From a virus: a stretch of DNA of 54,437 nt. Below are positions 124 through 54,437 of the stretch, piece by piece. The notes beneath the pieces were generated by a model. The model did not search any database. It saw only the letters and a list, made by a program, of their open reading frames with translations, and was not told where the DNA came from. The stretch's first letter is position 1, and every line of letters begins with the position of its first letter. The translations under genes and the position numbers were made by a program. The stretch lies in the IMG/VR virus record IMGVR_UViG_3300012985_000003; one strand, given 5' to 3'.

Positions 124-3100
124 GGCCTCGGGATCCCGCCGATGAGCAGCGTCTACATGGCGATCGACCAGCACATGTTCAGCATGCTGGAGAAGTTCAA
201 GAACAAGCTCGCGGCCCGCGTCGAGACCGACATCAACTACGGCGAGGTCGCCCCGATCCTGCCGGTCGGGCAGTCGACCACGCGCGAGGGCATCTCGGCC
301 GCCACCCCGGGCGCCACGATGCACCAGCTCACCGTCGGCAACGACGCGTTCCGCGCCCCGCAGCACCTGCACTACGGCGACTACCGCTCCCCGAGCGAGA
401 CCGCCGGCCAGCGCCCCGACAACCTGGTGGACGCCCTCGTCAGCTGGTACGAGGCGATCTCGAGCGGCATCGGCGTCTCCGTCCGGCAGTCGATCCTGAG
501 CCGCGACGAGATCAGCCAGCGAGCGATGGCGATCCTGCAGAGCGTCGCCCGCGCGTACGGGCTCGAGGGCAACGGCGTCGTCGGCGCCCACGTCGTCGCG
601 CAGCTCTCCATGCCCAACTACTCCCGTGAGGGCACCGAGTGGACCGACCAGGGTGGGTTCATCTCCCTCGGCCAGTGGGCTCTCCGCGAGGCCGCCCGCC
701 AGGTCGACCACATCGCCGAGTACGAGGAGAAGGCGGGGCTGATCCAGAGCCTCGACGCCGACGAGGCGTGGGTCGAGATCTTCGACGCGACGCCCCTCAT
801 TGCCGTGATGGGTGCCGCTGCCGACAACTTCGGCCCGCAGATGACGGTCGGACAGCTCAAGGCCCAGTACAAGGCGAAGGACACGTTCGCCCGGCGCGAC
901 TTCCGCGAGCGCGCCCGCACCGACTACCGCTACGCCGGTGAGCGCCACGACGCGCCGTACACCCGCGACGAGCTCCTCGAGCTCACGCTGGACGAGGCCG
1001 CGTACAAGACGAGCATCGACGCGATCTTCGCCGCCGCCGACAAGGAGCTCTCCGCAGACCCCCGCTCCGGCGAGATCAACCCGAACTCCACCGACTACGT
1101 GCGCGACCAGCGCATGCAGAAGAGCCTGGAGAACGCGTTCGAGTACACTCGCAGGGCTCTCGCCGACCTGGCCAAGCTGCACCGCATCAAGAAGCTCGAC
1201 GTGGCCAGCGTGCTGCGCCTGCTCGACGGCAACCCGAACTTCGCCCGCACCATCGCGGACCTGCTGCCGACCGACATCGTCAACGTCGTGTTCGAGCCGC
1301 TGCCCGACGGCCGCGTCAACGTGGCCCGCTGGTTCGCGGAGATGCTGACGCAGCCGCCGAAGCAGGCGGTCATGACGTACTTCCGCAACACGCTGCAGGC
1401 CAAGCTCAACGTGCTCGGCAACGAGACGAACCCCAAGATGGTCGACGACCGGATGGTGGAGCTCGTGCTGCAGCTGCAGACCGACCCGCCGCGCCTCGCC
1501 CGGTTCCAGGAGCTCCTGCTCACCAGCCAGGACCTCTCGGAGTTCATGGCGACCGTCAACAAGGAGTTCCGCACCGGCGCGCCGCAGCTCGCGTGGTTCC
1601 GGGACGTGGCGTCCTTCGACCCCTCCCGCACCGCCGGCGGCTGGAGCAAGCAGCTGCCCGGCGCGGAGCTCCGCGACGCGATCCGCAACTTCGCGAACGC
1701 GGCGGTCGGCTTCCAGGACTACGCGAGCCAGGAGCTCGAGCTCGACGCCAACGACGCGGACCTGATGACGACCCTGCAGCACGCGCTCGCCCAGTACAAG
1801 AGTGGCAAGCGATCCGACAGCCTGCACCTGCTCGACACGCTGCAGCGCTCGTTCGCCACCTCGGCCGGCCTGCGCCCCGCCCTCGGCCCCGGCACCCTGA
1901 TGCGCAGCGTCTTCGGCGCGATCAGCGGGTTCATGGGCAAGATGACGGACAAGGGCCTCGGCGCGACCTACTACGAGACCCTGAGCAACATCCAGGCCCT
2001 CGGGTACTCGCCGCTGCAGAGCATCGGCTACGCGCAGATGCTCGGAGCCATGACGACCTGGGACGCCGACGACGCCGCCGCCAACATGGGACTGTTCGCG
2101 GGGCAGAACCTGCGCCTCGCCGACCGCGAGGGCCGCATCATCGAGTGGACGGCCCTCTCCAACGCCGGCCAGGGCCGCGACAAGTACCAGGACGTCGAGC
2201 GGTTCCTCGAGATGTGGAAGGACCCGGCGTACCGGCCGATGCTGCGCGCCGCCGTCTTCCCCACGGCGTTCGAGACGCTCGAGAACGGTGGGATGAGCCA
2301 GCAGCTCCTCACCAAGATGGGCCTCCGCGACCTCGTCGGCGAGCCGACCGAAGGCACCGTGTACGACCGGATGCTCGGGTCCAACGCGAACCGGGACGTC
2401 CTCCGCTACGCCGCGCAGATCGACGCGCTGACCAGCAAGTACGGTCGCAACTTCGGCCTGCAGCGCTACGCCGCCGACCTCGCGATCGCCCGCACCTCCA
2501 CCGCGAGCCGCACGCTCACCCCGGACGAGCTCGAGGCGATCGCGAACGAGGCGATGCTGGACGTGGCGCGCATGCTCCGCGCCGCCGCCGCGTACGGCAA
2601 GCCCGAGGAGATCGCCAAGATGGTCTCCGACGCGACGCGCCGGCTCTCCCAGAACCTGTCGGTCGACGAGTCGTTCGGCTCCGACGTGGCTGAGACGATC
2701 CGCGACGGCATCTACGCGAACGCGCTCAGCGTGCTGCCGGAGAACGCGTCGCCCGAGCAGATCAAGGCCGCCGAGCAGCGCGACGAGATCCTCGCCCGCG
2801 TCGTCTACGGCAACGACAACCTGTTCCGCGACTACGCCCAGGCGTACCTCATCGACTGGAGCGACGGGACGACCTCGCTGGAGCGCATGCGCGCCCTCAA
2901 CGACGAGGTGCAGAACAACCCCGCGATCGCGCAGAGCACGCTGAGCGACGAGGTCCGCATGCTCACCACGGCGACCGCGACTGACGCGACCGGCCTGGTG
3001 CCGGTGCTCGCGGCCGACCCCGAGCTCAACCGGGAGCGCTGGGACGCCGTGGCCCGCGCGGTGCTCGCGTACAAGTTCACCGAGAGTATCGTCGGCGTGA

Positions 3101-10515: not shown

Positions 10516-12485
10516 CAGAGCCGATCACTAAGGTCGAACAGTGGTACACCAACCGCTCCGAGGGGCGGGACGGTGTGCTCGAGTTCCACGCGATCAGTGA
10601 CTGCGCGCAGGAGCTCAACCTCAAGTACCTGAAGTACAAGACCGAGATGGACGCTCGAGTCGCGAACTACTGGAAGCTCGAGAAGATCGCGGCGGCGGAG
10701 GTCATCAGCGAGAAGCCCGACCTGCCCAACATCAGCTCCGGCGAGACCGCCGGCATGATCCGCCGCATGGCGCGCAACCTCGTGCAGCACACTCCGAACT
10801 TCGAGGTCATCAGCAAGTTCGACGACGACGACGTCTACGGCATCTTCAGCCGCTGGATCCTCCGCAGCAAGATCTGCGGCGACGACCAGTACTCGAACGA
10901 CCTGCAGCAGAGCCTCTTCGCCTCGGCGAAGTCGGCCCTGACTCTCGGGTTCGACTGCGTGATCCCTGTGCTCGCGCAGGACGCGAAGAACGGGTGGTAC
11001 ATCAAGTACGACAACATCCACTACCGCGACGTCTTCCCCGAGCCCGGGGCGCGCGACATCCGGCAGGCGACCGACGTGTTCGTCCGCCGCTACCTCACCA
11101 AGGGCCAGGCCAAGAGCAAGATCGGCCTGGCGGGCTGGGACGATGCCGCCCTGAAGGCGATGCTGAAGACCCCGCCCCCGCCGCGCGAGATGCAGAGCGT
11201 GGATCACGAGTCGAAGAAGCGCGGCCAGATCCCCGACGGCTACGAGATCGTGACGTGGTACTCGAACACGGGCGAGCCGTTCCTCACGTTCGAGACCCGG
11301 TCGAAGATGCTGCTCCGCATCGAGCCCAACAAGCACCCGCTGAAGGAGCACCCGGTCTTCTTCCTCGTGCTGGAGAAGGACCTGTCGCAGCCCCTCGGCA
11401 AGAGCCAGGTCGAGCTCCTGCTTGGCCGCCAGGAGTTCCAGGATCTGCTGCTCAACGGTGCCATGAAGATGTGGTACCGCAACATCAACCCGATGATCAT
11501 CGGCCTCGGCACCGGCCTGAACGGCACCCCCAACCTGGGCCCCGGCAAGTTCATCCAGGTCGGCAACCCGAACGCAAAGTTCGAGACGTTCGAGCAGAAC
11601 AGCCAGACGCTGCTGCAGTACAACCAGATCGCCACAGCCAACCAGGGCAACATGGTGCAGCTCATCGGCGCCGCAGACCAGCAGATGGCGATGCAGGGCA
11701 CCGGCGGGGCGATGAGCCAGACACCGCAGGGCGTCGAGGCGCAGCAGGCGATGGTCGACATCACGACCAACAACTACCAGAAGGCGATCGAGTCCTTCGC
11801 CAGCCGATACGCGGGGTACGCCCTGACGATCTTCTTCCAGGAGCTCAAGAGCGTCAAGAGCATCGTGCCGACGGCGGACGCGCGAGTGCAGCTGCTCAAG
11901 GCGGGGCTCGACCCGGAGCTGTTCGTCGCGACCCCCGCCGAGGGAGAGAAGCCTGCCAAGGAGGAGGGCACGCTCGTGATGGACTTCTCGGACCTCGCGA
12001 CGGAGTACTTCGTCCGCGCCATCCCCGGGTCCCTCGTCGAGATGGAAGACGAGAAGCAGCTGCGGATCCTGAACCAGCTGTTCGTCCCCCTCAGCCAGGC
12101 CATGCCGGCGCTCGCGGCATCCGGCAACCAGCAGGCGCTCGCGCACGCGACGGCCGCGATGCTCTACATCGTCGAGAAGGAGATCGAGCTCACCGGCGCG
12201 ACCCACTCGAAGGAGCTCAAGGAGCTGCTCGTGCAGGGGGAGACCGAGCAGTTCCGCGCGCAGAAGGCGGAGCAGGCGGCGATCGAGGCCAACATCAACC
12301 AGCCCGACGAGGACGTGGAGAACGAGAAGCAGGCGTTCGTGGCCGCGATCGAGTCCCAGTCGAAGCAGCTCTCCGTGCTCACCGAGGCGGTCGCGGAGCT
12401 CCTGGCGCGGCAGTCAGGGGGGCAATCTGTACAATCTGCCCCTGCAACTGCGGGTGTAGCACCTGCAACTGCTGTACCCGCGTAG
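10506..12485 (+). CDS. Portal protein (putative)
   Basis: 659-aa ORF. Its GTG overlaps the giant-gene stop (GTGGCAGTAG). It sits immediately upstream of the capsid gene, and its size and acidic/Q-rich C-terminus are typical of podovirus portals. Confidence 0.6.
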   Translation: MAVAEPITKVEQWYTNRSEGRDGVLEFHAISDCAQELNLKYLKYKTEMDARVANYWKLEKIAAAEVISEKPDLPNISSGETAGMIRRMARNLVQHTPNFEVISKFDDDDVYGIFSRWILRSKICGDDQYSNDLQQSLFASAKSALTLGFDCVIPVLAQDAKNGWYIKYDNIHYRDVFPEPGARDIRQATDVFVRRYLTKGQAKSKIGLAGWDDAALKAMLKTPPPPREMQSVDHESKKRGQIPDGYEIVTWYSNTGEPFLTFETRSKMLLRIEPNKHPLKEHPVFFLVLEKDLSQPLGKSQVELLLGRQEFQDLLLNGAMKMWYRNINPMIIGLGTGLNGTPNLGPGKFIQVGNPNAKFETFEQNSQTLLQYNQIATANQGNMVQLIGAADQQMAMQGTGGAMSQTPQGVEAQQAMVDITTNNYQKAIESFASRYAGYALTIFFQELKSVKSIVPTADARVQLLKAGLDPELFVATPAEGEKPAKEEGTLVMDFSDLATEYFVRAIPGSLVEMEDEKQLRILNQLFVPLSQAMPALAASGNQQALAHATAAMLYIVEKEIELTGATHSKELKELLVQGETEQFRAQKAEQAAIEANINQPDEDVENEKQAFVAAIESQSKQLSVLTEAVAELLARQSGGQSVQSAPATAGVAPATAVPA

Positions 12486-12549
12486 TAGCGGGCAGAATGG
12501 AAGCAGCCGGGAGGTCCGGCGAAAGAGTCCCTGAAAGGAGGGATGCAGG

Positions 12550-14133
12550 ATGGTTGCACCGGTCCAGAGGGATGGCCTCTCCGACTACCAGGTTGCCCTG
12601 GCAACGTATCTCCGAATCTCGTCCCCCATCGCCGGTATGTTCACCGGCAACGAGATCAAGCCCAACCCGAACGCTCGTTCGGTCAAGGTGCCCGACATTC
12701 GTGTCGACGACTTCATCGTCGATGCCGAGCTCGGCCGCATCGGCACCGACCACTACTCCGGTTCCGAGTTCACCTCGGAGTGGAAGAACGGCATCCCCCC
12801 GATCTTCTGGCGCGAGTACTCCATGTCGCGCCACCGCTCGTTCGGCTTCACGGTCTTCGACGAGCAGCTCCGCACGAACCCGATCAAGAACATCGTGCAG
12901 GAGTACACCGGTCGCAAGATGCAGACCACCGTGCTCCGCGACCACGACAAGTACTGCCTCCTGGCAGCGATCTCGGGTCACATGACGGGCAAGCTCGTTC
13001 CCCGCGTCGCCGGCGTCGACACGCCCGGCCCGCAGACCCCCGACGTTCACCGCATCGCCAACACCGGCAACGCGGCGGACTACAAGTGGATCGCGGAGCC
13101 CGGCGAGACGTACGACAACGAGATCCAGCCGTCGTTCGCGAACGTCAAGGGCATGTACCTCGACGACGCGAACCCGCTGGGCACGCTGGACGCCCTGACG
13201 CTGACGTTCTCGGACAACTGGTTCGACAGCAACTTCGGCAACAGCGAGCGCTTCCTGCTCATCCCGTCGGCCCTCGAGCTCGTCTTCATCAACGCGCTCA
13301 TCGACAAGGGTGCCGGCACGGAGAGCGCGTTCAAGCTGCTCCGCGACGGCGACATCTCCGGCGCGAACGCGGCGGGCTACCTCGGCACCCTCAAGGGCTC
13401 GTGGAAGCTCGTCAAGATGCACCCCGAGTTCTTCCCGAAGGTGTTCACGGACACCAACCTCGTGGTCGACCCGGTCGCATCCACCGCCACCGGCGGGCGC
13501 ACGCTCCGCCAGGTCGTCGCTCTCGCGGCGTACAAGGGCGCCATCCAGACCTACGAGTACTTCTCGGAGCGTCGTCAGCAGGATGGTGGCACGCGGTTCA
13601 AGGGCACGGAGTACGTGCAGGACTTCTCCTACGACGTCTGGGCCATCGACCAGCTGTCGGAGGGCATCGTCCCGCTCTTCCTCCCGACCACGATCGACAA
13701 GCTGACCGTCGTGAACACCTCGTTCACGAACGTCGCAGCCAAGGTCGCCGCGGCCCGCGCCCAGACGAACATCGTCCAGGGTTCGACGTACCCGCTCTCC
13801 GGTCCCGACACGGTGCTCTCCAAGCCCGAGTGGTACAACCAGGAGCGTCAGTACTCCGACACGAAGAACCTCAACGCGGGTCTCTCCATCCAGGAGACCG
13901 GCGACCAGGCGCACCGCAACCCGCTGCTCGTGTCCGACGACCCGACGCCGCTGGTCATCAACCGCGCCAACTCCACCGCCTACACGGTCGGCCAGGTCCT
14001 CACGTTCACGAACGGGCAGACCTACGTCGTGTCGACCGCCGGTACGTCGGCTGCCGCGCAGCCGTCGACCACGGGCATCTCGATCGGCGACAACCTGACG
14101 GACGGCACCGCTGTCCTGAAGCGCAAGAACTGA
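12550..14133 (+). CDS. Major capsid protein (putative)
   Basis: 527-aa ORF. ATG is preceded by AAAGGAGGG. It follows the portal gene and is followed, after one small ORF, by a very strong hairpin terminator. Confidence 0.6.
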   Translation: MVAPVQRDGLSDYQVALATYLRISSPIAGMFTGNEIKPNPNARSVKVPDIRVDDFIVDAELGRIGTDHYSGSEFTSEWKNGIPPIFWREYSMSRHRSFGFTVFDEQLRTNPIKNIVQEYTGRKMQTTVLRDHDKYCLLAAISGHMTGKLVPRVAGVDTPGPQTPDVHRIANTGNAADYKWIAEPGETYDNEIQPSFANVKGMYLDDANPLGTLDALTLTFSDNWFDSNFGNSERFLLIPSALELVFINALIDKGAGTESAFKLLRDGDISGANAAGYLGTLKGSWKLVKMHPEFFPKVFTDTNLVVDPVASTATGGRTLRQVVALAAYKGAIQTYEYFSERRQQDGGTRFKGTEYVQDFSYDVWAIDQLSEGIVPLFLPTTIDKLTVVNTSFTNVAAKVAAARAQTNIVQGSTYPLSGPDTVLSKPEWYNQERQYSDTKNLNAGLSIQETGDQAHRNPLLVSDDPTPLVINRANSTAYTVGQVLTFTNGQTYVVSTAGTSAAAQPSTTGISIGDNLTDGTAVLKRKN

Positions 14134-19526: not shown

Positions 19527-19976
19527 ATGTGGGCACACGTTACGAACTCAGTGGTCGACGGCTTCGGCCCGCCGCCATCGCTGGTGTTTGCGGACGACCG
19601 GTGGTGGGACCTTCGCCCGATGGACCCCGCGATCCTGAACGCTCGAGGCTGGTATCTCGTCACTGAGCAGCCTCGCCCGGCGGACACGGCGACCCAGACA
19701 GCTGACGCTGTGTACACCTTCGACGAGCCGACGAAGACGGTCATCACGACGTGGATACTGCGGAACAAGACGCCGGAGGAGTCCGCAGCTGCTGCGAGTC
19801 GGTCCAACCAGAGCAACATCGAGACGTCTCTCCGGCAGGACCTCCTCGACATCCAGGCGGTGATCGACGCGACCAACGCATCCATCAACAGCAGCCCCGC
19901 ATCCTCGATCAAGACCCTCGCACGAGTCGTGCGACGGCTCAACAAGTACGCGCTCCGAGACTTCGGCAGCGTCTAA
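19527..19976 (+). CDS. Hypothetical protein
   Basis: 149-aa ORF with a natural-looking sequence and high GC3. Confidence 0.75.
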   Translation: MWAHVTNSVVDGFGPPPSLVFADDRWWDLRPMDPAILNARGWYLVTEQPRPADTATQTADAVYTFDEPTKTVITTWILRNKTPEESAAAASRSNQSNIETSLRQDLLDIQAVIDATNASINSSPASSIKTLARVVRRLNKYALRDFGSV

Positions 19977-19990
19977 CAAGGGAGAACACC

Positions 19991-20686
19991 ATGAAGGATC
20001 TCAAGTACCACCCCGGCATGTGGATGCGTGACGACGCAGCCGACGCCATGAACGCGCTGGAGGACAAGTACGGTCCCATCCGCATCAACCGCGCGGGCGT
20101 CCTGAAGGCCGACCAGCAGCGGCTCATCGACCGCTGGAACATGGGCGGCACGTACAACCGCCCGCCGTACCTGTACCCTCCCGCGAATCCGGCGGAGAGC
20201 AGCGAGCACGTCCAGGGAACCGCTGCCGACGTGTACAACTACACGAGTGACCGAGCCAAGCTGCAGGAGTTCGGCTTCGTGTGGTACGGGCCGAAGGACC
20301 CCGTCCACTACATGTTCCGAGGCGTCGCCAAGCCCGCCGACAACCCGCAGCCTGCGGCCGTCAGCACCATCGCGAAGAGCCTGCGCTGGTACGGCATCCA
20401 GGCGATGCTGAAGGTGAACTACGGCTACACCGGCGCGATCGACAACATCCCCGGCACGGGCACCATCACGGCGTTCCAGCGCTTCCTCAACCGCAACGGC
20501 TACGGCGCGGGGGCCGAAGACGGCATCGCCGGCAACCAGACCTGGGACGCCGCGCAGCGGTGGCTCCGGGCGAAGTGGAACTACCAGGGCGCGATCGACC
20601 ACGACTTCGGCCCCGGGTCGCGCCAGTCGTGGGCCACTGCCGAGAACAAGAACTGGCTCGCGTTCCACAAGCAAGCCGGGGTCTGA
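19991..20686 (+). CDS. Endolysin: LAS/M15-type zinc peptidase plus peptidoglycan-binding domain
   Basis: RBS AAGGGAGAA. Motifs are H7-x6-D14, SEHVQGTAADV (SxHxxGxAxD) and DPVHY. The C-terminus FQRFLNRNGY...DGIAGNQTWDAAQRWL resembles PG_binding_1. Confidence 0.8.
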   Translation: MKDLKYHPGMWMRDDAADAMNALEDKYGPIRINRAGVLKADQQRLIDRWNMGGTYNRPPYLYPPANPAESSEHVQGTAADVYNYTSDRAKLQEFGFVWYGPKDPVHYMFRGVAKPADNPQPAAVSTIAKSLRWYGIQAMLKVNYGYTGAIDNIPGTGTITAFQRFLNRNGYGAGAEDGIAGNQTWDAAQRWLRAKWNYQGAIDHDFGPGSRQSWATAENKNWLAFHKQAGV

Positions 20687-24744: not shown

Positions 24745-27123
24745 GTGGTTGGACCTAAGAAGGATCCGCATCAGCCAGATCGGCCGCTGTCCAAGGCGTA
24801 CCTCAGAGAATTCTCCGGGTGGAGCACCGCCAACCCGCCGGGCGTCAGCGAGCCCACGAGCCTCCGCATCATGGAGAACGTGCAGATCACTCGCGGCGGC
24901 GCCGTGCGCATCCGCCCGGCGATCCGCTCCGTCCTGACAGCAAACACCTGGCTGGACAGCAACTACTCGTCCACGATGGTCGGTGGCTTCGAGCACTTCT
25001 TCATGAACGACGGTCGCAAGGCGCTGCTGTTCGCCGCCCGACAGAGCACGGGAGTCGTCGGCTTCAAGGTGGCCGTGTACAACTCGGTGACCGAGCGCTT
25101 CGACATCAAGAGTCTCTCGGAGGCGGGGTTCACGATCCCCCAGGGCGAGGGCACGCTGAGCTTCTCTTCGGCGACGACGTTCGTGAAGTACCTCCAGATC
25201 GACAACAAGGTCTTCGCGCTCTCCGACGGCGGCGAGGACCTCCGTCTCTTCGACGTGGGCGTCGGGAAGACGGCGAAGAAGGTCGTGCAGATCACCGTGC
25301 CGGCCTGGGCGCCGGCGGACGCGCTAAGCGTCGTCCACCCCGACGCCGCGTGGATCAACAACGCGACGAAGAACACGATCCCCACTGCGGAGACGCCGAC
25401 GCTGGGGACTCTCGTCAGCAGCCAGGCTGCCGACAACGACTACACGTACGGCTACTTCTACACGTTCGAGAACGAGATCGGCGAGAGCGCCGCGAGCCAG
25501 ATCACGATGATCCAGGCCCAGCGCGGCTGGAGCCAGTGGAAGTTCCGCGTCCCGGACGCGAGCGGCAACGAGACGACGACGGCAGTCACCGACCCGAAGA
25601 TGGCGATGGACCAGCTCGTCGCGATCCTGCCCGCAGCTGTCTTCACGCAGGCGATCGCCGAGGGCGCGAAGAAGTGGAACCTCTACCAGTTCACCTGGAG
25701 CGACCAGGACGTCGTGCCGAGCGAGGCGATCATCGTCGGGAGCCGAACGCTGACCTCGAGCTCGACTCGCGCGGTGGACGGCTGGATCCAGAACACGGCG
25801 GCGATCGACCTGGGCAGCGCGACGGCGCCGCTCCCGACTCTCGAGAACCGCGTCAACTACAGCGACCCGAGCTCCGCGAGCCAGGGCCTCGTCGCGGGCG
25901 ACCGCCTCATCCTCGTGAACGACCGGGAGAACCTGGCTCGCATCATGTGGAGCAGCAACCTCGCCGGCGACTTCACCAACTTCACCCCGAGCAAGGGCGG
26001 CGGAGTCAAGACGCTCACCAGCGGAAACCTGCTGGTGCCGGTGGCCGTGAAGCTCTGGCAGAACCCGCAGTCCGTCGACACCATCACGATCCTGTGCTCC
26101 GGCGTCGACGGCTACTCGACGAGCTACTACATGGCTCCCGCGTCCGTCAGCGGGCAGAGCGGGTCGACTGCGATCATGGGGTTCGAGGAGACGACCGCCA
26201 CGCCGGGGACAGTGAGCCCGTACGGCGTCGAGGTCTTCAACAACACCATGATCCACCCGCTCGACACCGAGCTCATGAAGAGCACGGCGAGCAACTACAA
26301 CATCAACCACTCGACCCTGACCGACGACATCGCGAACAAGTGGCTGGCACTCCGCACCAAGGAGAACATCGTCAGCAGCCAGCACGCCAACCGCCTGTAC
26401 TACCTCGTGAACAACCCGGACGGCGAGGAGCTCCTGCCGAACTGTAACGGCAACGAGGTGTGGGTCTACGACGGCGCGAAGGACCAGGGCTCGTGGAGCC
26501 GGTGGCTCGTGCAGGGCATCGCGCTCTCCAAGCTCGAGGTCGGCGGCAAGCTCTACATGAGCATCAGTCGCCCCGAGGGCATCTTCGTCTTCGACGACCA
26601 GCGCCTCACCGACGAGTACTCGGCGAGCGGCGGGACGATCCAGCGCGCGATCCCGTGGCAGATCGAGACCAACACCCAGGGTGCGAACCGGGCGCACGAC
26701 GCGTGGGCCCGGCTGCAGCAGGTGAACCTCACGTTCGGGAACTGGCGCGGCGCCCTGGAGTACGGGATCCGGGGCATGGACCCGTACGGCCAGCTGATCG
26801 AGGTCAAGAAGACCTATCGCCGGCCGATCGAGAACGACCTGGGGGACCGGCCACTCCCGTTCGACATCGAGGACTTTCTCCAGATCGGGCGGGATCTCAA
26901 GGAGTGGTTCTTCTGGGCGCGCTCCGTCACGGAGAACGATACCGTCGCGACCAGCTACGGCCAGATCAACCTCCTCCAGTACCGCTACCTGCCGGTCACG
27001 GTCAACGTCGGCTACGCGTACGGGTCGGTCGAGACCTTCGAGTACGGCCAGAGCTCGCTCGGCCTCGCCAGCAACACCGACAACGGTGTCCCCTCGCCAT
27101 TCATCGATACAGGAAGGCCCTAG
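24745..27123 (+). CDS. Tail tubular protein B / nozzle-like protein (putative)
   Basis: 792 aa, close to T7 gp12 size. The N-terminal MENVQITRGGAVRIRP pattern resembles nozzle N-termini. Confidence 0.55.
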   Translation: MVGPKKDPHQPDRPLSKAYLREFSGWSTANPPGVSEPTSLRIMENVQITRGGAVRIRPAIRSVLTANTWLDSNYSSTMVGGFEHFFMNDGRKALLFAARQSTGVVGFKVAVYNSVTERFDIKSLSEAGFTIPQGEGTLSFSSATTFVKYLQIDNKVFALSDGGEDLRLFDVGVGKTAKKVVQITVPAWAPADALSVVHPDAAWINNATKNTIPTAETPTLGTLVSSQAADNDYTYGYFYTFENEIGESAASQITMIQAQRGWSQWKFRVPDASGNETTTAVTDPKMAMDQLVAILPAAVFTQAIAEGAKKWNLYQFTWSDQDVVPSEAIIVGSRTLTSSSTRAVDGWIQNTAAIDLGSATAPLPTLENRVNYSDPSSASQGLVAGDRLILVNDRENLARIMWSSNLAGDFTNFTPSKGGGVKTLTSGNLLVPVAVKLWQNPQSVDTITILCSGVDGYSTSYYMAPASVSGQSGSTAIMGFEETTATPGTVSPYGVEVFNNTMIHPLDTELMKSTASNYNINHSTLTDDIANKWLALRTKENIVSSQHANRLYYLVNNPDGEELLPNCNGNEVWVYDGAKDQGSWSRWLVQGIALSKLEVGGKLYMSISRPEGIFVFDDQRLTDEYSASGGTIQRAIPWQIETNTQGANRAHDAWARLQQVNLTFGNWRGALEYGIRGMDPYGQLIEVKKTYRRPIENDLGDRPLPFDIEDFLQIGRDLKEWFFWARSVTENDTVATSYGQINLLQYRYLPVTVNVGYAYGSVETFEYGQSSLGLASNTDNGVPSPFIDTGRP

Positions 27124-28620: not shown

Positions 28621-29669
28621 GCGATGGGAACACCGAGGTTGAGGTCGTCGAGCTCCCGACTTCGCCTGAGGCAGCGTTTGCGGGACTCATGGACGCTCTG
28701 GCACCTGAGACGGATAACCCGTCTCCGGCAGAGGGCGGCGCAGAGGCTCCTGCTCCTGCAGCTGGAGACGGATCACCAGCTGCTCCGGCTGAAGGAGCTG
28801 GAGCAGCTGGAGCAGCTGCACCAGCACCGAATCCAGGAGACGCAGGTAAGCCGGCAGTACCGGGAGCACCCGGAGCTGACGGTGCCCAAGCCGGAGGTGA
28901 GCAGCCCGGGGAACCTGCTGGAGCTCCTGGGCCCGCAACCCCCGCTCCGGTAGTCGACTGGGGTGCCGTCTCCGCTGGCATCAACGAGACCATCCGTAAG
29001 CAGACCGAGACGGAGGCGATCGAGGCGGTCCGAACCGAGTTCGGCAACTACATCGAGGCCGTCCAGAAGCCGCCCGTCGTCCTGAAGGGGACGAAGGTCC
29101 CGGGGCTCGACTCGACGCCCAAGGACCGGCTCGACGCAGACGGCATGATGCTCCTCCGCGACACGGAAGAGGCGGCCGAGTGGCAGGAGCACGTCAAGTA
29201 CGAGCTCAACCGCGAGATCGGCGACCGCGCCGCGCGTCTCAGCGACGAGCGTCGCGACGACGTGGAGCGGCTCCACTCGGCGGCCGACCTCTTCCAGGCG
29301 AACCCCGAGCTCCTGAGCGACAAGGCGCTGGCGGACGGCTTCATGGAGAGCGCGAAGCACCTCCTGAAGAAGAACGCCGACGGCAAGCCGATCGGCTTCA
29401 TCGTTCCCACCGAGAACCTGCAGGCGATCGTGGACTCGGTGAAGTCCCGCCTCGCGCCCGCTGCCCCGGCGGCTGCTGCCCCGGCGGCGGCCTCCAGCCC
29501 GCAGCAGCAGCGCGCCACGGAGCAGCCCCGCAACCCGCAGGGACAGTTCCAGAACGAGCAGCCGCAGCCCGGGCTCACCAGCCAGGCGGGGAGCTCCGGA
29601 GACGCGGCGAACGACTTCGACGCGCTGTTTGGCACGCTGGGGTTCCAGCCCGGAACGATCAGGATCTGA
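28617..29669 (+). CDS. Scaffold-like protein with a P/A/G-rich N-terminal region
   Basis: GTGA overlap. The frame is continuous for 350 aa. The C-terminal two thirds have normal codon usage, but 28701-28950 has aberrant GC3 (see findings). Confidence 0.6.
   Translation: MSDGNTEVEVVELPTSPEAAFAGLMDALAPETDNPSPAEGGAEAPAPAAGDGSPAAPAEGAGAAGAAAPAPNPGDAGKPAVPGAPGADGAQAGGEQPGEPAGAPGPATPAPVVDWGAVSAGINETIRKQTETEAIEAVRTEFGNYIEAVQKPPVVLKGTKVPGLDSTPKDRLDADGMMLLRDTEEAAEWQEHVKYELNREIGDRAARLSDERRDDVERLHSAADLFQANPELLSDKALADGFMESAKHLLKKNADGKPIGFIVPTENLQAIVDSVKSRLAPAAPAAAAPAAASSPQQQRATEQPRNPQGQFQNEQPQPGLTSQAGSSGDAANDFDALFGTLGFQPGTIRI
28624..28953 (+). CDS. Alternative-frame ORF (109 aa) embedded in the scaffold-like gene; status uncertain
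   Basis: This frame, not the 28617 frame, has genome-typical GC3 across 28740-28950. It encodes a Leu/Glu/Gln heptad-like stretch LLRLKELEQLEQLHQH. Confidence 0.3.
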   Translation: MGTPRLRSSSSRLRLRQRLRDSWTLWHLRRITRLRQRAAQRLLLLQLETDHQLLRLKELEQLEQLHQHRIQETQVSRQYREHPELTVPKPEVSSPGNLLELLGPQPPLR

Positions 29670-29671
29670 CC

Positions 29672-29788
29672 ATGTGGAAGACAGCCGGGGCGGTGATCGC
29701 GACAGTGTTCCTGCTCGCCGCCCTGGCTCTCGCCCTCATGCCGCTGTGGATGGTCATCTTCGTCGGCGAGGGCAAGAGCCAGTGGTGA
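29672..29788 (+). CDS. Small membrane protein (38 aa)
   Basis: MWKTAGAVIATVFLLAALALALMPLWMVIFVGEGKSQW, with high GC3 and a stop overlapping the terminase GTG. Confidence 0.55.
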   Translation: MWKTAGAVIATVFLLAALALALMPLWMVIFVGEGKSQW

Positions 29789-31242
29789 GAACCAAGTTCC
29801 CCGTACACTACGTCCCGCGACCGTACCAGCAGCAGCTGCACTCGATGTGGCGGACGAAGCGCATCGGCGTCGCCGTGCTCCCGCGACAGAGCGGCAAGGA
29901 CGTGGCGATGAGCATGGAGATGGTGGAGAGCCGCCTCCGCGTCGCCAAGACGACTGGCGTCTACATCTCGCTCAACAACCCGATGATCCGCGACATCCTG
30001 TGGCAGAAGACGTACAACGACCCCGCCACCGGGCAATACATCCGCATGCTGCAGGACAACACCCCGCCCGGCTACTGTGACTGGAAGAACACGGTCATGG
30101 AGGGGGACTTCGCCAACGGCAGCCGCATGAAGCTGCAGGGCTACTTCCAGAGCGGCCAGGACACGAACGGTGTCGGTACGTCGTTCCAGGACTACGCGTT
30201 CACCGAGCTCGCGCTGTTCGGGCGCGAGGACCCGCTGCCCCGCCTCAAGCCGATCATCTCCGGTGAGCACGAGAAGAAGCGACTCATGGTCGCGAGCACC
30301 CCTCGAGGCCGGCGGAACAACCCGCTCTGGCAGCTCATGGAGAGCGAGGGCAGCCGGGCAGACTACGGCCAGATCATCTGGACGATCGACGACCTGAACG
30401 AGATGATGACGCGGGAGGGCCTGCCGCCCGTCCGGAGCAAGGCGGCTCTCGAGAGCGACCGGGAGAGCTATCGCAAGCGGTTCGGCAACGACCGCATGTT
30501 CATGCAGGAGTACTACGTCGACTTCGACGAGATGGACGCTGCCGCCGTCTACGGCGAGGCGTACATCGACCTCATCAACGACCGCCGGGCAGAGACCTTC
30601 AACCTCGACGTGGGCCACCCCGTCTACGTCGCGTTCGACATCGGCTCGTCGGGCCAGCACTCGGACGCGACGGCCTGGATCGCGTTCCAGTGGATCAATG
30701 GCCGCCTGTTCCTCTACGACTGCGGCGAGGGCCACGGCAAGGCGCTGCCGGAGTACGTGGACGTGCTGCGCGAGAAGCCGTACTTCAACCGCATCGCGCA
30801 GATCATCCTGCCGTGGGACGGCGAGCACCACGAGAAGGCGGTCAACACGACCCCCGCCGACATGATGCGGCAGAAGTTCCCCAACGTCGCCGTGCTCGCG
30901 AAGAGCAACAAGGTCTGGAAGATCCCCGGCTCGCGTGCCGGCGACTACGACCTCATCACCGACATCCAGCAGGTCCGCATCCAGCTCTACAACACCATCA
31001 TCCACTCGGCCAACTGCGACTGGCTGATGAGCTGCCTGGAGCAGTACAAGTACGAGTACAACGCGAAGCTGCAGGAGTGGAGCGGAAAGCCGCTGCACGA
31101 CAAGTACTCGCACATGATGGACGCGCTGCGGTACGTCGTGCAGGCGACCAAGGAACTGCAGTTCTTCGGCGGCAACATGTTCGAGGCCGCCGGCGGGAGC
31201 GCCTCGACGTACACTGAGGATTGGAGCGGAGTGTGGGCGTGA
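29785..31242 (+). CDS. terL: Terminase large subunit
   Basis: GTGA-coupled start. The N-terminus PRPYQQQLH...VLPRQSGKDV is Walker A-like, and the C-terminal half is nuclease-like. The protein is 485 aa. Confidence 0.8.
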   Translation: MRTKFPVHYVPRPYQQQLHSMWRTKRIGVAVLPRQSGKDVAMSMEMVESRLRVAKTTGVYISLNNPMIRDILWQKTYNDPATGQYIRMLQDNTPPGYCDWKNTVMEGDFANGSRMKLQGYFQSGQDTNGVGTSFQDYAFTELALFGREDPLPRLKPIISGEHEKKRLMVASTPRGRRNNPLWQLMESEGSRADYGQIIWTIDDLNEMMTREGLPPVRSKAALESDRESYRKRFGNDRMFMQEYYVDFDEMDAAAVYGEAYIDLINDRRAETFNLDVGHPVYVAFDIGSSGQHSDATAWIAFQWINGRLFLYDCGEGHGKALPEYVDVLREKPYFNRIAQIILPWDGEHHEKAVNTTPADMMRQKFPNVAVLAKSNKVWKIPGSRAGDYDLITDIQQVRIQLYNTIIHSANCDWLMSCLEQYKYEYNAKLQEWSGKPLHDKYSHMMDALRYVVQATKELQFFGGNMFEAAGGSASTYTEDWSGVWA

Positions 31243-49595: not shown

Positions 49596-49913
49596 TCACT
49601 CGAAGTCGTCCTCACTGACGATGTCGCCGAAGCGAGCGATGATGCCGGAGACGAGCTCGTTGCAGGCGGTGACGCCGAGCTGGTCGTTGATGATGTCGCC
49701 GAGCTTCGGCATGAACGTCGTGGATGCGGCCTCGAAGCCGCCGACGTAGACCGTGACCCGGTAGAGGTTGGAGCGGATCTGCTGAATCCAGATGCTGATC
49801 CGGTGCCCGTTGACTCGATGGAGCAACGGGAAGACGCCGTCCCGAGTGGGCTGGCTGGTGCGGATGTTGTGGTCGCGAAGCGCCTGACGAAGACGCGTGA
49901 GCTGAGTGGTCAT
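49596..49913 (-). CDS. Hypothetical protein (105 aa)
   Basis: ATG 49913 follows GGAGGA. The upstream part of the track ORF looks non-coding. Confidence 0.75.
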   Translation of the reverse strand: MTTQLTRLRQALRDHNIRTSQPTRDGVFPLLHRVNGHRISIWIQQIRSNLYRVTVYVGGFEAASTTFMPKLGDIINDQLGVTACNELVSGIIARFGDIVSEDDFE

Positions 49914-49938
49914 GAGTATCTGTCCTCCAGTAGAGATT

Positions 49939-50163
49939 CTACCGTCGACGCAGGGCGCGCCGACGAGATTCGATGAACCAGATGCGCTCCTGCTGAACGC
50001 GGATGGCAGCCCAGGTCTGCCGCAGTTCATCCCGAATGGATTGGGTCGCAGCACCGAAACGGTGATCCGACTCGATCTTCTTCAGTTCACGGTACTGCTT
50101 CTTCGCCAGAGCCGTGAACTCCTTCAATGCCTTCCTTGCCTCCCTCTCTTGTGTCTCTAACAC
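49939..50163 (-). CDS. Small basic coiled-coil protein (74 aa)
   Basis: GTG 50163 follows GAAGGGAAAGGA. This is the first ORF downstream of the repeat array. Confidence 0.55.
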   Translation of the reverse strand: MLETQEREARKALKEFTALAKKQYRELKKIESDHRFGAATQSIRDELRQTWAAIRVQQERIWFIESRRRALRRR

Positions 50164-50270
50164 AATTCCTTTCCCTTCTCTCTCCCAAAAATAGGTTCCC
50201 ACCTATGGAGGCTAGCCAGCCGAAGGCCCTCGCCAGGGCCCACGCAAGCCTGCTCAAGTGACGGAGAAGA

Positions 50271-50495
50271 CGTAACGAAAAACGTAACGAATCCCCAAAC
50301 GTAACGAGTCGTTACGCCTCTAACTCGTCGAGTTACGAGGCGTAACGAGTCACGTAACGGGCACGTAACGAGCAGCGTAACGAGTCGCCTTCCCATGCGA
50401 GACATGACGTAACGAGCGTAACGAGTTTTCCATCCCAAAAGTTGGGATGGGATGAGTAGAGAAAGTTTGAGGTGGCGACTCGTTACGTCGTTACG
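50271..50495. repeat. Iteron-like array: 12 copies of CGTAACGA (consensus aCGTAACGAGt) in both orientations
   Basis: Forward copies start at 50271, 50283, 50300, 50341, 50353 (variant ..GG), 50364, 50376, 50408 and 50417. Inverted copies start at 50309, 50480 and 50488. Spacing is mostly 11-12 bp. Confidence 0.85.
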
Positions 50496-50792
50496 CCACG
50501 GCAGAGCCGTGTCGGCGAGGGCAAAGAGGCGGCCACACGTGGCCGGCGTCTCGGACGAAACAAAGAACACACAGACCGTAGCTGAACGCTGCGGATAGAC
50601 AGGTCCTGGCGGACCTTGTGTAGATAACGATCATCAGCCTAGAAACAGTCATCCACGCACATCCCGCTAGTTGGATGCCGGTCGCTCAGTAGCCTGAGCG
50701 CAAGCGTCACGCGACTAGCGGTAGCTAGTGAGGTCTGTGGTTGAGTTTACCGACTATGTGCATGAGATGACAAAAAAGAGGCTGATGACGTT

Positions 50793-50822
50793 AGAAAAAC
50801 AGAGAGGTCCCGATTGGGACCT
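50793..50822 (-). terminator. Rho-independent terminator after the first leftward gene
   Basis: Stem aggtccc / gggacct with loop gatt, followed on the minus strand by ctctgttttt. Confidence 0.7.
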
Positions 50823-50846
50823 GACTGTTTAGGCAGTAGCGAGATG

Positions 50847-51107
50847 CTACTTGATACCCGCGAGGCGGTTGAGCTGACGCTCGTAGAACGCGATGAGTGT
50901 CGCGTTGGCAGTCCGAGATTCGGGTGTTGCCCGAAGCTCAGCCAGCTTGTTGCCGATGTTCTCGACCTTGACGAGCATGTCGTCCGTGACTTCCATGATC
51001 ATCTTGTCGAGGATGGCGTTCTGTGCCTCAGTGACCTTGGGGTCCTGAAGCATGCGGGTGACCTGGGCGTCGAGCAACGGCTGGAGATTGAGCTGAAATG
51101 CGGACAT
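50847..51107 (-). CDS. First leftward (early) gene, hypothetical 86-aa helical protein
   Basis: ATG 51107 follows AAAGGAA. The AT-rich 5' extension of the track ORF looks non-coding. Confidence 0.7.
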   Translation of the reverse strand: MSAFQLNLQPLLDAQVTRMLQDPKVTEAQNAILDKMIMEVTDDMLVKVENIGNKLAELRATPESRTANATLIAFYERQLNRLAGIK

Positions 51108-51124
51108 GGTGACGAAGTTCCTTT

Positions 51125-51290
51125 GGCTAGATTGACTTGATCCAAAAATTGATACTTGATTCACTTGATACTATCGATTCAATGATTTATATGACTGACC
51201 TATACCCATACATATACATGTATAGGGGGGTATAGATGTGTGTTATTTGTTTCTATTGTATTAATGGATCTCCACAGAAAAAGTTCCCGC
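51125..51290. promoter_or_regulatory. AT-rich divergent control region with repeats and a composite palindrome
   Basis: It shows a sharp GC drop. ACTTGAT occurs three times (51135, 51154, 51163). An imperfect palindrome spans 51200-51235 around ATACATGTAT. Confidence 0.5.
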
Positions 51291-51490
51291 TTTCCTGAGA
51301 ACCATCGGCACCTTCTCAACTCTCGTAACGGTTTTCCCCGGGGATTCCGCCCCGACTCCGGATCGTCACCCGTGTTTCCCGGGTAGAGGCCCGTGCCCGG
51401 CGGTCCCGGGCCGAGTTCCCCGGGAGCGAGGGTCGCCCTCGGCCGGGGATCGGGGCTCCCTCCGGCGGCGAGTGTGCCGAGGTGGGGCGC

Positions 51491-51518
51491 GCGAAACCCG
51501 CCAGGGACGGGCTATAAT
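51491..51518 (+). promoter_or_regulatory. Promoter-like motif GCGAAA-N16-TATAAT upstream of the giant gene
   Basis: An exact TATAAT lies 43 nt before ATG 51561. It has the same GCGAAACC box as the site at 27197 and is bracketed by an 8-bp inverted repeat. Confidence 0.45.
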
Positions 51519-51560
51519 CGAGGGAGTAGCCGGACCCGTCCCCCGGCGTTGGAGTGGTCG

Positions 51561-54437
51561 ATGGCCGGCTGGCGCGAATCCCGGTTTGCTACTGAGGCGC
51601 CGGTCGCGGCCCCCGTCGGAGCCCAGCAGCAGTCGGTCACCCAGGATGAGACGCGCGCCGCCGGCGGCTGGCAGGGCAGCCGGTTCGCCCTGGAGGCGGC
51701 GCCCCGGCTCCCGAAGTGGCAGAGCGGCGGCCAGGTCGGCTCCACGGAGAACGGCTGGAACACGCCCTTCTACCAAAAGATGTTCGACCAGCGCAACGCG
51801 CGGCTGGACGCCGGCACGATCGGCGACTGGTACTCGAGCGAGGACTTCACCGGCGTCGCGACGTGGGAGGGCCAGAAGGCCGCCGACGGGCGAGACATCC
51901 GCCTCGGCGACGTGTACGAGGACGGCACCTACCGGGGCAACCTGCTGGACCCGAAGAGCGGCTACGACGAGGCCACCGGCTACCAGATGCTCGCGCAGCT
52001 GAGCCTCAGCGCGGACGAGCAGAAGCACGCGTACGAGCGGCTCCGCTCGAACCCCCTCGCGGTCAAGGAGGCGGTCGACGCCCGCGCGGCGGAGGACACG
52101 CGCAACGTCGCGGCGGCCCAGGGCAGCAAGGCCTACCAGAGCGAGATCGACCAGCAGAAGAGCGAGTGGGACGACGCCGTCGAGGGCACCCTGGCGATCG
52201 CCGCCGGTGCCGTGGGCGGCGCGGCGCTCGGCATCTTCGGAGGCCCGATCGGCATCGCAGCCGGTGCCGTGGTCGGTGGCGTGGCGGCGGCGGCCAACAA
52301 GGACTTCCTGGTCGACCAGGCGGCGCGGGCCACCGTGCAGACGGGCATGGCCGCGGAGCAGTTCGGCCCGGCGGGCGGCCTGAGCACGGGCCTGCAGCAG
52401 TGGGGCGGCGCGGCGCTGAGCGCCTTCACCCCCCTCTCCAACCTGACGCAGGGTATCACGGACCTCGCCAACGGCGGCTGGGACGACTCGAGCGCCTACT
52501 ACGACATGGGCGCCGAGCGGCCCTGGTGGCTCACGGGCCTCGGGATCACGGCGACCCTCGGCGACTCGCTCCTGCAGTTCGCCAGCCCCGTCGGCCAGGC
52601 CGCGTTCAAGACGGCGATGGGCGCGACCGTGGCCGGCGGCGCGGGGCAGCTCGCCTTCCAGGGAGGCGCGCGGTTCGACGACCGCATCGGCAACTTCGAC
52701 GCGCCGGACGACCCGGGCCAGTGGCTCGCCGCCATCGGCGCGGTGGGTATGGACGTCGTCCAGCTCGCCGGGGCTCGAGGCATCGCCCGTGCCGTCACCA
52801 GCGCAGACCGCGCGGCGCTCGGTACGGTCGACGACGCGAGCCGGCTCAGCCTGTTCAACCGCACGATGCCGGAGGGCGCCGTCCGCACCGAGCGCATCGG
52901 TGGCAAGCAGTTCTACCTGGACGAGGCGGGCCAGGTCGTCGGCACCCCGCGCACCACGATGACGATGCTCGCCCCGAGCGAGGCGACGATGTGGGCCAGC
53001 GCGAAGCTGCAGACCCAGATCATGCGGGCGCAGCACGGCGGCGCGATCAGCCCTCAGCAGGCGAACCAGCTGCTGTACCAGGCGGCGAAGGACATCGAGG
53101 GCGGCACGAACCTCGCGAAGACGGCGCTCGTGAACGCGTTCGGCGAGGGTCTCGAGGAGGCGACCCAGTCGGTGCTCGAGCCCCTGAGCCACGGCTGGAC
53201 CCCCGACGGCAACGACGTCATCATGAGCTACCTGCAGGGCGCCGCCGCCGGCGCGGGCATGAGCGTCGGCGCCCGGGTCGGGAGCTACTCCGCCAACGAG
53301 CGGGGCTACCTGCGGAGCCAGCAGATCGCCAAGCTGAACAACGTCACCCCGCCGACCCGCGAGCAGTGGGACAGCTGGACGCCGGAGCAGAAGCGCCAGG
53401 CGACCGCCGCCCCGCCCCTCGTCTCGATGGGGCTCCGCGAGGCCGGCGAGCGCGCGGCGCGCGAGCAGGTGATGGAGGCCGTCAAGTTCGACGTGGGTCT
53501 CGAGAAGAGCCTGGACGCCGCCCTGCTGACGCAGGACAAGGAGATGCGGAGCCTGAACCCGGCCCTGGAGGGCACGTTCACGCTCGGCTCGCTGCAGTCC
53601 AGCGACATCCCCAACCACGTCGTGCTGAGCGACTTCGACTCCGTCGTGAACCTGCTCCAGAGCAACGCCGACTCCGTGCGCGACCAGATCGCCCAGCGCA
53701 ACCCGGCGCCGCAGCTCGAGCCCATCGCGGAGGCTCAGGCGATGGTCCTGGAGCAGATGCACCGGCTGCAGCGGGAGTTCGTGTCGGCGACTCCGGAGCG
53801 CCAGGCCCAGATCGTGCGCGACGCGAACGAGGTCATCCAGGTCGCGTGGGACTCGGTCGTCCAGGAGGGCGACGTCATCACCGGCAGCCCGTACGCGAAG
53901 GCCGTCGGCGTGCTGCTCAGCCGCTCCCCGAACAACAGCGCAGGCTCGTTCCAGATGCTGATGCCGCAGGTCTCCCTGCAGGACACGCTCGACGGCGGGC
54001 AGGGCCTGCTGAAGGTCAGCCACGCGATCCTGAAGATGATCGACGGCGACTTCGACGGCGACATGGTGCGCCAGCACGTCCAGGTCGCGATCGAGATCGA
54101 GGACGACGCGTACCGCGCGCTGCGGCTCGGCCTGAACGCGCTCGGCATGCGCGACGGCTCCGTCAAGATCGGCACCCGCGACACCGAGGAGTTCATCATC
54201 GACCGCCTCGGGCTGGCGGCGAAGGGTGGCGTCGGCAGCAAGAGCGCCGAGGCGACCCTCCGGGTGATGAGCGCCTGGCTGAAGACGAACCTCGCGACCG
54301 TCCCCAACATCGACACCATCGTCGACGAGACGATCGACGAGCTCCGCCGCGGCGTCGTGGACGCCAAGCAGAACCTGTTCCAGAAGCTGAACACGCAGGC
54401 GTCCGACGAGGTGATCCGCCTCGGCGAGCGCGGCAAC
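51561..54437 (+). CDS. Giant protein, N-terminal 959 codons (runs off the window end and continues at nt 1/124); contains RNAP-like double-psi-barrel motifs
   Basis: ATG 51561 lies 6 nt after GGAG. The frame has no stop to the window end and is in frame with nt 1. A glycine-zipper hydrophobic pair lies at about 52185-52296, a beta-like motif at 52893-52982 and a beta-prime-like motif at 53922-54143. Confidence 0.85.
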   Translation, partial: MAGWRESRFATEAPVAAPVGAQQQSVTQDETRAAGGWQGSRFALEAAPRLPKWQSGGQVGSTENGWNTPFYQKMFDQRNARLDAGTIGDWYSSEDFTGVATWEGQKAADGRDIRLGDVYEDGTYRGNLLDPKSGYDEATGYQMLAQLSLSADEQKHAYERLRSNPLAVKEAVDARAAEDTRNVAAAQGSKAYQSEIDQQKSEWDDAVEGTLAIAAGAVGGAALGIFGGPIGIAAGAVVGGVAAAANKDFLVDQAARATVQTGMAAEQFGPAGGLSTGLQQWGGAALSAFTPLSNLTQGITDLANGGWDDSSAYYDMGAERPWWLTGLGITATLGDSLLQFASPVGQAAFKTAMGATVAGGAGQLAFQGGARFDDRIGNFDAPDDPGQWLAAIGAVGMDVVQLAGARGIARAVTSADRAALGTVDDASRLSLFNRTMPEGAVRTERIGGKQFYLDEAGQVVGTPRTTMTMLAPSEATMWASAKLQTQIMRAQHGGAISPQQANQLLYQAAKDIEGGTNLAKTALVNAFGEGLEEATQSVLEPLSHGWTPDGNDVIMSYLQGAAAGAGMSVGARVGSYSANERGYLRSQQIAKLNNVTPPTREQWDSWTPEQKRQATAAPPLVSMGLREAGERAAREQVMEAVKFDVGLEKSLDAALLTQDKEMRSLNPALEGTFTLGSLQSSDIPNHVVLSDFDSVVNLLQSNADSVRDQIAQRNPAPQLEPIAEAQAMVLEQMHRLQREFVSATPERQAQIVRDANEVIQVAWDSVVQEGDVITGSPYAKAVGVLLSRSPNNSAGSFQMLMPQVSLQDTLDGGQGLLKVSHAILKMIDGDFDGDMVRQHVQVAIEIEDDAYRALRLGLNALGMRDGSVKIGTRDTEEFIIDRLGLAAKGGVGSKSAEATLRVMSAWLKTNLATVPNIDTIVDETIDELRRGVVDAKQNLFQKLNTQASDEVIRLGERGN
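54315..54437. repeat. Second copy of the 123-bp terminal overlap
   Basis: Identical to nt 1-123. Confidence 0.9.

Follow-up and report, generated by a model that had tools for sequence, protein, structure and literature searches.

The giant gene of the viral DNA record IMGVR_UViG_3300012985_000003, a stretch of 54,437 nucleotides (nt) analysed here at full length and called the window, is best read as a member of a new family of virion-packaged RNA polymerases (RNAPs) of the two-barrel type, in which the second barrel is either too diverged to be recognized or unconventionally placed. The catalytic core of a nucleotide polymerase of the two-barrel (cellular) type probably lies in the N-terminal third of its product (~aa 440-1600; aa, amino acids), and aa 766-841 (53856-54083, +) is, as judged from AlphaFold, Foldseek, PDB profile and hhalign results, a beta-prime-type double-psi beta-barrel (barrel A) that holds an invariant R-x-P and an invariant DxDGD. 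Five of the eight signature residues and one of the two barrels of such enzymes are thereby established. We hold it very likely that this barrel is homologous to those of RNAPs and competent-looking in its catalytic residues, and reasonably likely that the gene encodes a functional RNAP that is packaged in the virion and injected.

The open reading frame (ORF) starts at 51561 (+), runs past the window end and resumes in frame at nt 1, with its stop codon at 10513-10515. An exact 123-bp direct overlap was found between the window ends (1-123 = 54315-54437), which indicates that the contig is circular or a circularly permuted assembly, and the window is a circularly assembled contig of ~54.3 kb with 65.9% G+C. 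The giant gene spans the contig junction: its first part (51561-54437, +) encodes aa 1-959, the last 123 nt being a duplicate of nt 1-123, and its second part (1-10515, +) encodes aa 919-4422 plus the stop codon, so that naive joining of the parts duplicates 41 residues (aa 919-959). A length of ~4,460 aa was thus corrected to 4,422 aa on account of the 123-bp overlap. All of the peptides and coordinates that an earlier reading made without database searches (the sequence-only reading) quoted from the translation of 51561-54437 (+) were right. The protein is identical to the metagenome-collection protein P0003.

By tblastn, the giant protein matched genes of >4,400 aa in Arthrobacter phage MissAmericana (40% identity) and in 48 Microbacterium phage records (24-29%), and the homologues, namely those of cluster EK, Burro gp27 and MissAmericana gp30, were collinear with it across the full length at 22-41% identity. 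A word-indexed homologue search yielded just two fragments; a family profile search covering 1.84 billion representative proteins defined a family of 183 clusters (50% identity), of which 143 reached E <= 1e-30, nearly all of the family being 4,400-4,900 aa long. Conservation was determined on an alignment of 125 sequences that were <50% identical to each other and had an overall identity to the window protein of only about 25%, with positions numbered as in the window protein. Pfam, PHROGs and PDB phmmer searches on aa 1-1400 and on the remainder of the protein produced zero matches.

The peptide that the sequence-only reading had aligned by hand with E. coli beta-prime (aa 788-861, nt 53922-54143) contains R788-x-P790 (53922-53930, +), which corresponds to Rpb1 R446/P448 and E. 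coli beta-prime R425/P427, and the Mg-binding triad motif D830-F-D832-G833-D834 (54048-54062, +), i.e. DFDGD at aa 830-834. A lone D.DGD is expected by chance at ~0.1 per protein of such size and composition and is not significant by itself, so the evidence rests on its context. A single D-x-DGD was present at the aligned position in 128 of 128 long family representatives (DFDGD in 61, DYDGD in 32, DHDGD in 25, DNDGD in 5, and others), the motif reading D-[FYHNW]-DGD throughout the family, and the R-x-P lay 41-51 residues upstream of the triad, at exactly 42 in 101 of 125 sequences. R788, P790, D830, D832, G833 and D834 were 100% invariant; S796 (97%), P802 (87%) and, in the R855-x-G857 directly after the barrel (54123-54131, +), R855 (92%) and G857 (99%) were highly conserved. 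Among the minor features noted in the hand alignment, the Pro at +14 (P802) and R855-x-G857 are thus conserved, and no conservation was seen for the Gln at +10, for the His ahead of the triad or for the ‘HV’ after it. R788, P790 and the three triad Asp make up five of the eight residues that are universal in two-barrel RNAPs (Ruprich-Robert and Thuriaux, PMC2919709), which in barrel A of Rpb1 are R446, P448 and the Asp residues of the DFDGD triad.

That R, P and the three Asp are absolutely invariant in 125 lineages at an overall identity of ~25% is what a functioning active site would show, and it speaks against the module being a degenerate relic, namely a lone beta-prime-like barrel that is inactive, has no partner barrel and serves an ejection protein as a structural or metal/nucleic-acid-binding module. 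Such a relic would account for the failure of every test run to detect the partner barrel (barrel B) and for the rest of the 4,422 aa having no recognizable enzymatic domain. However, divergent phage RNAP families are unrecognizable outside the DxDxD region (PMC10770324), and we consider the relic improbable.

Profile comparisons pointed to the same barrel. The hand alignment to E. coli beta-prime was reproduced by hhalign, which matched window residues 781-837 to beta-prime 418-467 (E 9.6e-5) and equated R788 with R425, P790 with P427 and D830/832/834 with D460/462/464. Searching PDB with the whole-protein family profile returned the beta-prime-N chain of the phiKZ non-virion RNAP (nvRNAP; 7ogp_A) as the sole significant match (E 7e-4), with an alignment covering R-x-P through DFDGD, followed by AR9 beta-prime. 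With a 131-position profile (aa 752-880) the phiKZ and AR9 beta-prime chains were matched at E 1.1e-4 and 4.6e-3, respectively, and after them came dozens of bacterial beta-prime subunits, Pol I RPA1 and cyanobacterial gamma chains; the tape-measure RNAP of P23-45 (8h2n, 8h2m) was among the weak matches (E 0.35-0.6). A 9-sequence profile (A1) gave noise only against PDB.

The predicted fold agreed with the profiles. An AlphaFold2 model of aa 381-1580, built from a 27-sequence multiple sequence alignment, had a predicted local distance difference test score (pLDDT) of 74 and a predicted template-modelling score (pTM) of 0.55, and placed in aa 766-841 the strands VLLSR, QMLMPQV and LLKV, the helix HAILKM, the DxDGD loop and a further strand. 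This order equals what we take to be that of the beta-prime barrel, and is used as a lead rather than a test. In a Foldseek comparison with PDB, one of the checks that the sequence-only reading had proposed, the best 50 matches were all RNAP beta-prime chains (probability 0.84-1.0, 377-1111 aligned columns). The first BFVD matches beyond the protein's own family included several RNAP large subunits of jumbo phages, giant viruses, nudiviruses (LEF-9) and poxviruses, along with unnamed or uncharacterized entries. The proposed beta-prime-type barrel with its full R-x-P...DxDGD signature is thus backed by conservation, profile search and predicted fold. In all two-barrel enzymes, the R-x-P and DxDGD residues bind the catalytic Mg2+ and the incoming nucleoside triphosphate.

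These matches also bear on the possibility, raised in the sequence-only reading as a refutation, that the motif forms a calcium-binding loop of the DxDxDG type within a fold other than a barrel, or arose by chance. The DGDFDGD of the window superficially resembles DxDxDG, and the loop has a low pLDDT. Yet the first D-G is unconserved, being replaced by GGD, SHD, SAD or NAD in relatives, the conserved unit is R-x-P, 42 residues and DxDGD, and the profile and fold matches are specific to the RNAP beta-prime barrel. The Foldseek, PDB profile and hhalign results contradict the calcium loop, which we regard as hardly credible.

Several results weigh against the polymerase reading. The Foldseek E-values for beta-prime chains were modest (6e-4 to 6e-3) and the global template-modelling scores low (0.1-0.16), the DxDGD loop itself was modelled with a pLDDT <50, and QDE-1, gp66 and YonO were absent among the best matches, YonO itself not having been compared separately. 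The sequence-only reading had placed a beta-like barrel at aa 445-474 (52893-52982, +) by virtue of an R-x-G-x-K containing K449. This segment consists of a predicted beta-hairpin (442-453) and a conserved A-P472-S473-E474, and within it G448, F/Y451, G457, P472, S473 and E474 were conserved and two basic positions semi-conserved ([RK]450 66%, [RK]464 83%). K449, which had been singled out together with D830, D832 and D834 for a conservation check, was variable (R/M/F/W/I and others) where the three Asp were invariant; R-x-G-x-K is specific to the window and absent in relatives, and no invariant basic residue was found in aa 400-787 of the family alignment. In the large model, the hairpin (aa 442-453) and a few strands (442-465, 638-690) lay around a 170-residue helical insert, and when aa 385-765 was folded alone it became mainly helical and the hairpin alone survived. 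Foldseek of aa 385-765 against PDB returned generic helical bundles only (E >= 0.06), and neither the PDB profile nor per-member Pfam searches on this region gave an RNAP-like match. Barrel B is marked by Rpb2 D837, K979 and K987, the two Lys/Arg being ~8 residues apart, and its E. coli counterpart reads GDK1065-MAG-RHGNK1073; neither barrel B nor the Asp and the two Lys/Arg that form its three-residue signature could be located in the giant protein. The beta-like barrel at aa 445-474 was therefore not upheld by fold, profile or Pfam, leaving the two-barrel architecture and its beta-like-then-beta-prime-like order unproven.

The partner barrel may be a very divergent version upstream of barrel A, where strands were modelled at aa 442-465 and 638-690, or it may have to be sought in another part of the protein, where further conserved blocks were found. 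The block at aa 2828-2925 (5728-6021, +), beta-rich by eye, has G2828 at 100%, R2844-H-G2846 at 96-98%, K2916 at 97% and K2925 at 100%, with K2916 and K2925 nine residues apart, and a wider conserved block at aa 2790-2990 (5614-6216) also has the invariant K2962. Neither a PDB profile nor Pfam found a match for this wider block, and its hhalign comparisons with rpoB and gp66 were negative; it may serve as a lead for the missing second barrel or for another catalytic module. The invariant K1569-G1570 (1951-1956, +) belongs to a block at aa 1530-1690 that was also considered as barrel B, and its hhalign comparisons with rpoB, rpoC and gp66 were negative. Upstream of the triad, at aa 525-536 (53133-53168, +), lies the nearly invariant acidic motif N-[AG]-F-G-E-G-x-E-E-x-x-Q, with E532 at 100% and E529, E533 and Q536 at 99%; it sits in a predicted helix ~300 aa before the catalytic triad and equals the triad in conservation. 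The invariant F-R1036-x-x-Q-x-L-H-Y1043 (352-375, +), inside a low-confidence model stretch (aa 991-1085), might suggest a mobile catalytic element such as a trigger-loop or bridge-helix region.

Two of these blocks would permit a non-canonical active site. The partner barrel could be displaced ~2,000 residues downstream to aa 2828-2925 and be joined to barrel A after folding or proteolytic processing, or the helical module with the invariant GEGxEExxQ motif could stand in for the beta-like barrel; either arrangement would be a new architecture among cellular-type RNAPs, and we think it unlikely that one of them applies.

Judged by sequence and predicted fold, the barrel is closest to the multisubunit-type beta-prime of jumbo phages phiKZ and AR9 and of bacteria, and not to QDE-1 or gp66. 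The phiKZ gp55 (PDB 7OGP chain A) and AR9 beta-prime (PDB 7S00/7S01 chain d) were the only significant sequence-profile matches, and they and the bacterial beta-prime share with the giant protein a common [FL]-x-R-[ND]-P-x4-GS ... [ND/G]-[AG]-D-[FY]-DGD at equal spacing. They differ from it in being separate subunits with recognizable beta partners, whereas the barrel here lies inside a single protein of 4,422 aa. The gp66 of crAss-like phage phi14:2 (PDB 6VR4) is likewise a large podovirus virion protein with a DFDxD, and its RNAP similarity is confined to one barrel, matching locally as RIPNQGQSS...(39)...DFDID against RSPNNSAGS...(42)...DFDGD of the giant protein. However, hhalign of the family against gp66 gave no significant match, and neither QDE-1 nor gp66 appeared in the best 50 Foldseek matches. 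Position 4 of the motif is Ile or Val in gp66 and an invariant Gly in the giant protein, as in cellular RNAPs, and in gp66 barrel B, a ~140-aa connector and barrel A have all been identified, whereas barrel B has not in the giant protein.

In its biology the giant protein appears closest, by analogy, to crAss-like gp66 and P23-45 gp96, each of which was discovered via the same motif in a giant virion protein. The P23-45 polymerase, found by seeking the motif in virion proteins (PMC10770324), is a DFDGD enzyme in the N-terminal part of gp96 (PDB 8H2M/8H2N), a tape-measure-fused virion protein of 5,002 aa with membrane segments. P23-45 is a siphovirus in which the giant protein measures an 800-nm tail, and it possesses a second, non-virion two-barrel RNAP, whereas in the window phage, a relative of podoviruses, no further candidate was seen. 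The N4 gp50 (3,500 aa), a giant podovirus protein that is encapsidated, injected and active in early transcription, offers a functional analogy; this virion RNAP (vRNAP) is T7-like, single-subunit and of unrelated fold, and no Pfam or PHROG match to T7-like or N4-type RNAPs was obtained anywhere in the giant protein, as Burro and cluster EK giant proteins were reported to be without similarity to N4 vRNAP (PMC7302621). Polymerases fused into giant virion proteins have precedents (bioRxiv 10.1101/2020.03.07.982082; PMC10770324), and some crAss-like phages have a huge polyprotein that unites the RNAP with adjacent virion proteins (bioRxiv 10.1101/2020.03.07.982082). The architecture, which the sequence-only reading expected to be unusual, is less unprecedented than supposed given the crAss-like polyproteins (bioRxiv 10.1101/2020.03.07.982082) and the P23-45 fusion (PMC10770324).

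The genome context is that of a podovirus, with the giant gene followed by the portal (10506-12485) and then the capsid gene (12550-14133), and the matching layout is annotated in Arthrobacter phage MissAmericana, Microbacterium phage Burro and cluster EK phages, in all of which the homologous gene is likewise upstream of the portal. Further downstream are minor tail and tail-fibre genes, an endolysin (19751-20686), a conserved 792-aa protein (24745-27123) called ‘nozzle protein’ in the MissAmericana annotation and the large terminase (29629-31242), and the opposite arm, transcribed leftward, encodes a primase/polymerase, helicases and PolA. The window represents a new relative of these phages, with Burrovirus phages as its best nucleotide match (79% identity over 33% of the structural arm), which bears out the description of the virus as an actinophage-like podovirus. 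The relatives are podoviruses with circularly permuted genomes (PMC7302621; PMC13460095). ORF scans also confirmed the claim that the genome has no other recognizable RNAP gene: no second DxDGD-bearing ORF was present, and no other ORF of the genome had an RNAP or sigma-factor match.

The homologues MissAmericana gp30 (18759-32063 of L001) and those in the Arete and Araxxi RefSeq records are labelled ‘tape measure protein’. Besides these annotations, the great size of the protein and its hydrophobic segment near the N terminus would fit a tape measure, and P23-45 shows that a tape measure can carry an RNAP. The annotation is doubtful because the annotated phages are short-tailed podoviruses, and it is probably wrong or at best incomplete. 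Against it, the portal and capsid genes come after the giant gene, the layout and the morphology of the relatives are podoviral, no tail-tube or tail-chaperone gene was recognized among the ORFs scanned, and a ruler of 4,400 aa would, at our own figure of ~1.5 Å of tail per residue, correspond to a tail of ~650 nm. That the protein is simply a tape measure is thus very improbable in our view.

Packaging, ejection and early transcription by the giant protein are inferred from the precedents of N4, crAss-like gp66 and P23-45 gp96. The giant proteins of Burro and cluster EK are among the largest viral gene products and are virion-associated, with an unclear role (PMC7302621), and the Burro homologue was detected in virions as a ~250 kDa band, suggesting processing (PMC7302621). 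By homology with the Burro protein, that of the window would be packaged in the capsid, and at infection, perhaps once cleaved by a protease, it would leave through the short tail. The Gly/Ala-rich hydrophobic, transmembrane-like segment at aa 207-246 (52179-52298, +; Kyte-Doolittle scan), for which Burro gp27 has two reported N-terminal transmembrane segments as a counterpart (PMC7302621), could together with the long C-terminal part help to form the conduit through the envelope or to traverse it. The polymerase module might then transcribe the first phage genes independently of the host RNAP, as do N4 vRNAP, gp66 and gp96. HExxH and Cys motifs showed no conservation in the giant protein, so it has no zincin protease of the crAss gp65 kind.

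Two further observations count against this early-transcription role. No dispersed promoter-like repeat was found in the leftward arm, and the circularly permuted genomes of the relatives provide no fixed leading end carrying early promoters, whereas N4, crAss-like phages and P23-45 have such an end. Both would be compatible with an active two-barrel-superfamily enzyme that is not the early-gene transcriptase and acts instead as a primase-like or DNA-polymerizing enzyme, a maker of small RNAs or a motor that does no more than pull DNA into the cell. Catalytic residues alone fix neither substrate nor biological role, the superfamily includes the archaeal DNA polymerase PolD and the dual DNA/RNA-templated QDE-1, the window genome is itself probably circularly permuted and genome scans found no early-promoter motif in it. 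On the other side, PolA, a primase/polymerase and helicases are already encoded by the phage itself, beta-prime subunits of DNA-dependent RNAPs are the best matches in both sequence and fold, and all phage virion proteins that carry this motif and have been characterized are transcriptases; a role other than early-gene transcription seems rather unlikely to us, and a virion-packaged RNAP is retained as the best reading.

The giant gene makes up a quarter of the genome in cluster EK and Burro-type podoviruses, and this >13-kb gene was described as being among the largest viral genes, with function unknown (PMC7302621). A cellular-type polymerase active site would give it a concrete, testable function, in phages and hosts that are cultivable via the SEA-PHAGES collection. 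Virion-packaged two-barrel RNAPs, described from the crAss-like phages of Bacteroidota and from siphoviruses of Thermus, would then also occur in actinobacterial phages, and a family of 183 clusters would be added to the sparse divergent RNAP lineages used in reasoning on polymerase evolution; a missing or displaced second barrel, if true, would make the enzyme mechanistically unusual. In the searchable full-text literature no paper was found that assigns a polymerase role to the Burro, cluster EK or MissAmericana giant proteins, and the supplementary alignments of the P23-45 paper mention neither Microbacterium, Arthrobacter nor Burro. As far as this literature shows, the RNAP assignment is unpublished.

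Other features of the virion module and of the intergenic region were also recorded. The 792-aa ORF (24745-27123) was considered as a second polymerase and rejected, as it is the tail nozzle protein; among the proteins checked it was the best conserved, its counterparts in cluster EK, Burro and MissAmericana being 53-73% identical. Neither PHROGs nor Pfam matched the portal and major capsid proteins (10506-14133), which were recognized solely through the annotation of relatives, indicating that the entire virion module has diverged strongly in this group of phages. The ~1.8 kb directly upstream of the giant gene (49750-51560) holds no convincing ORF and is poorer in G+C (0.35-0.6 versus 0.66 genome-wide, with a minimum at 51150-51300), and relatives show a comparable gap. 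In this lower-GC intergenic region between the divergent arms, ten copies of ACGTAACGAG (<=1 mismatch; nine +, one -) are clustered within ~220 bp at 50270-50488. The genome holds 13 matches in total versus 2.6 expected by chance, and the only three outside the cluster each carry 1 mismatch. As its copies are confined to one 220-bp cluster, ACGTAACGAG was rejected as an early promoter, and by its arrangement the cluster resembles an array of iterons at an origin, or of operators, more than it does a promoter dispersed over the genome. A scan of the intergenic region for sigma-70 promoters and terminators gave counts no higher than in shuffled sequence.

The gene order was also seen in a distant family member, P0116 (4,847 aa), which is encoded on L010, a Logan contig (SRR18474652) of 18.2 kb, where small leftward genes, a ~450 bp gap, the giant gene and an overlapping downstream gene follow each other. 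Its neighbourhood matches that of the window, so the synteny reaches metagenomic relatives. In the giant protein of the window, a nine-Gly run precedes the C-terminal basic tail (window 10330-10512, aa ~4362-4422). The tail, ...NTSNPIIRR..RRER.SSERGRLNQWQ (10414-10512, +), is the most conserved stretch of the protein, with 86% identity to MissAmericana and 68-82% to Microbacterium phages, and may be a packaging, portal-docking or processing signal.

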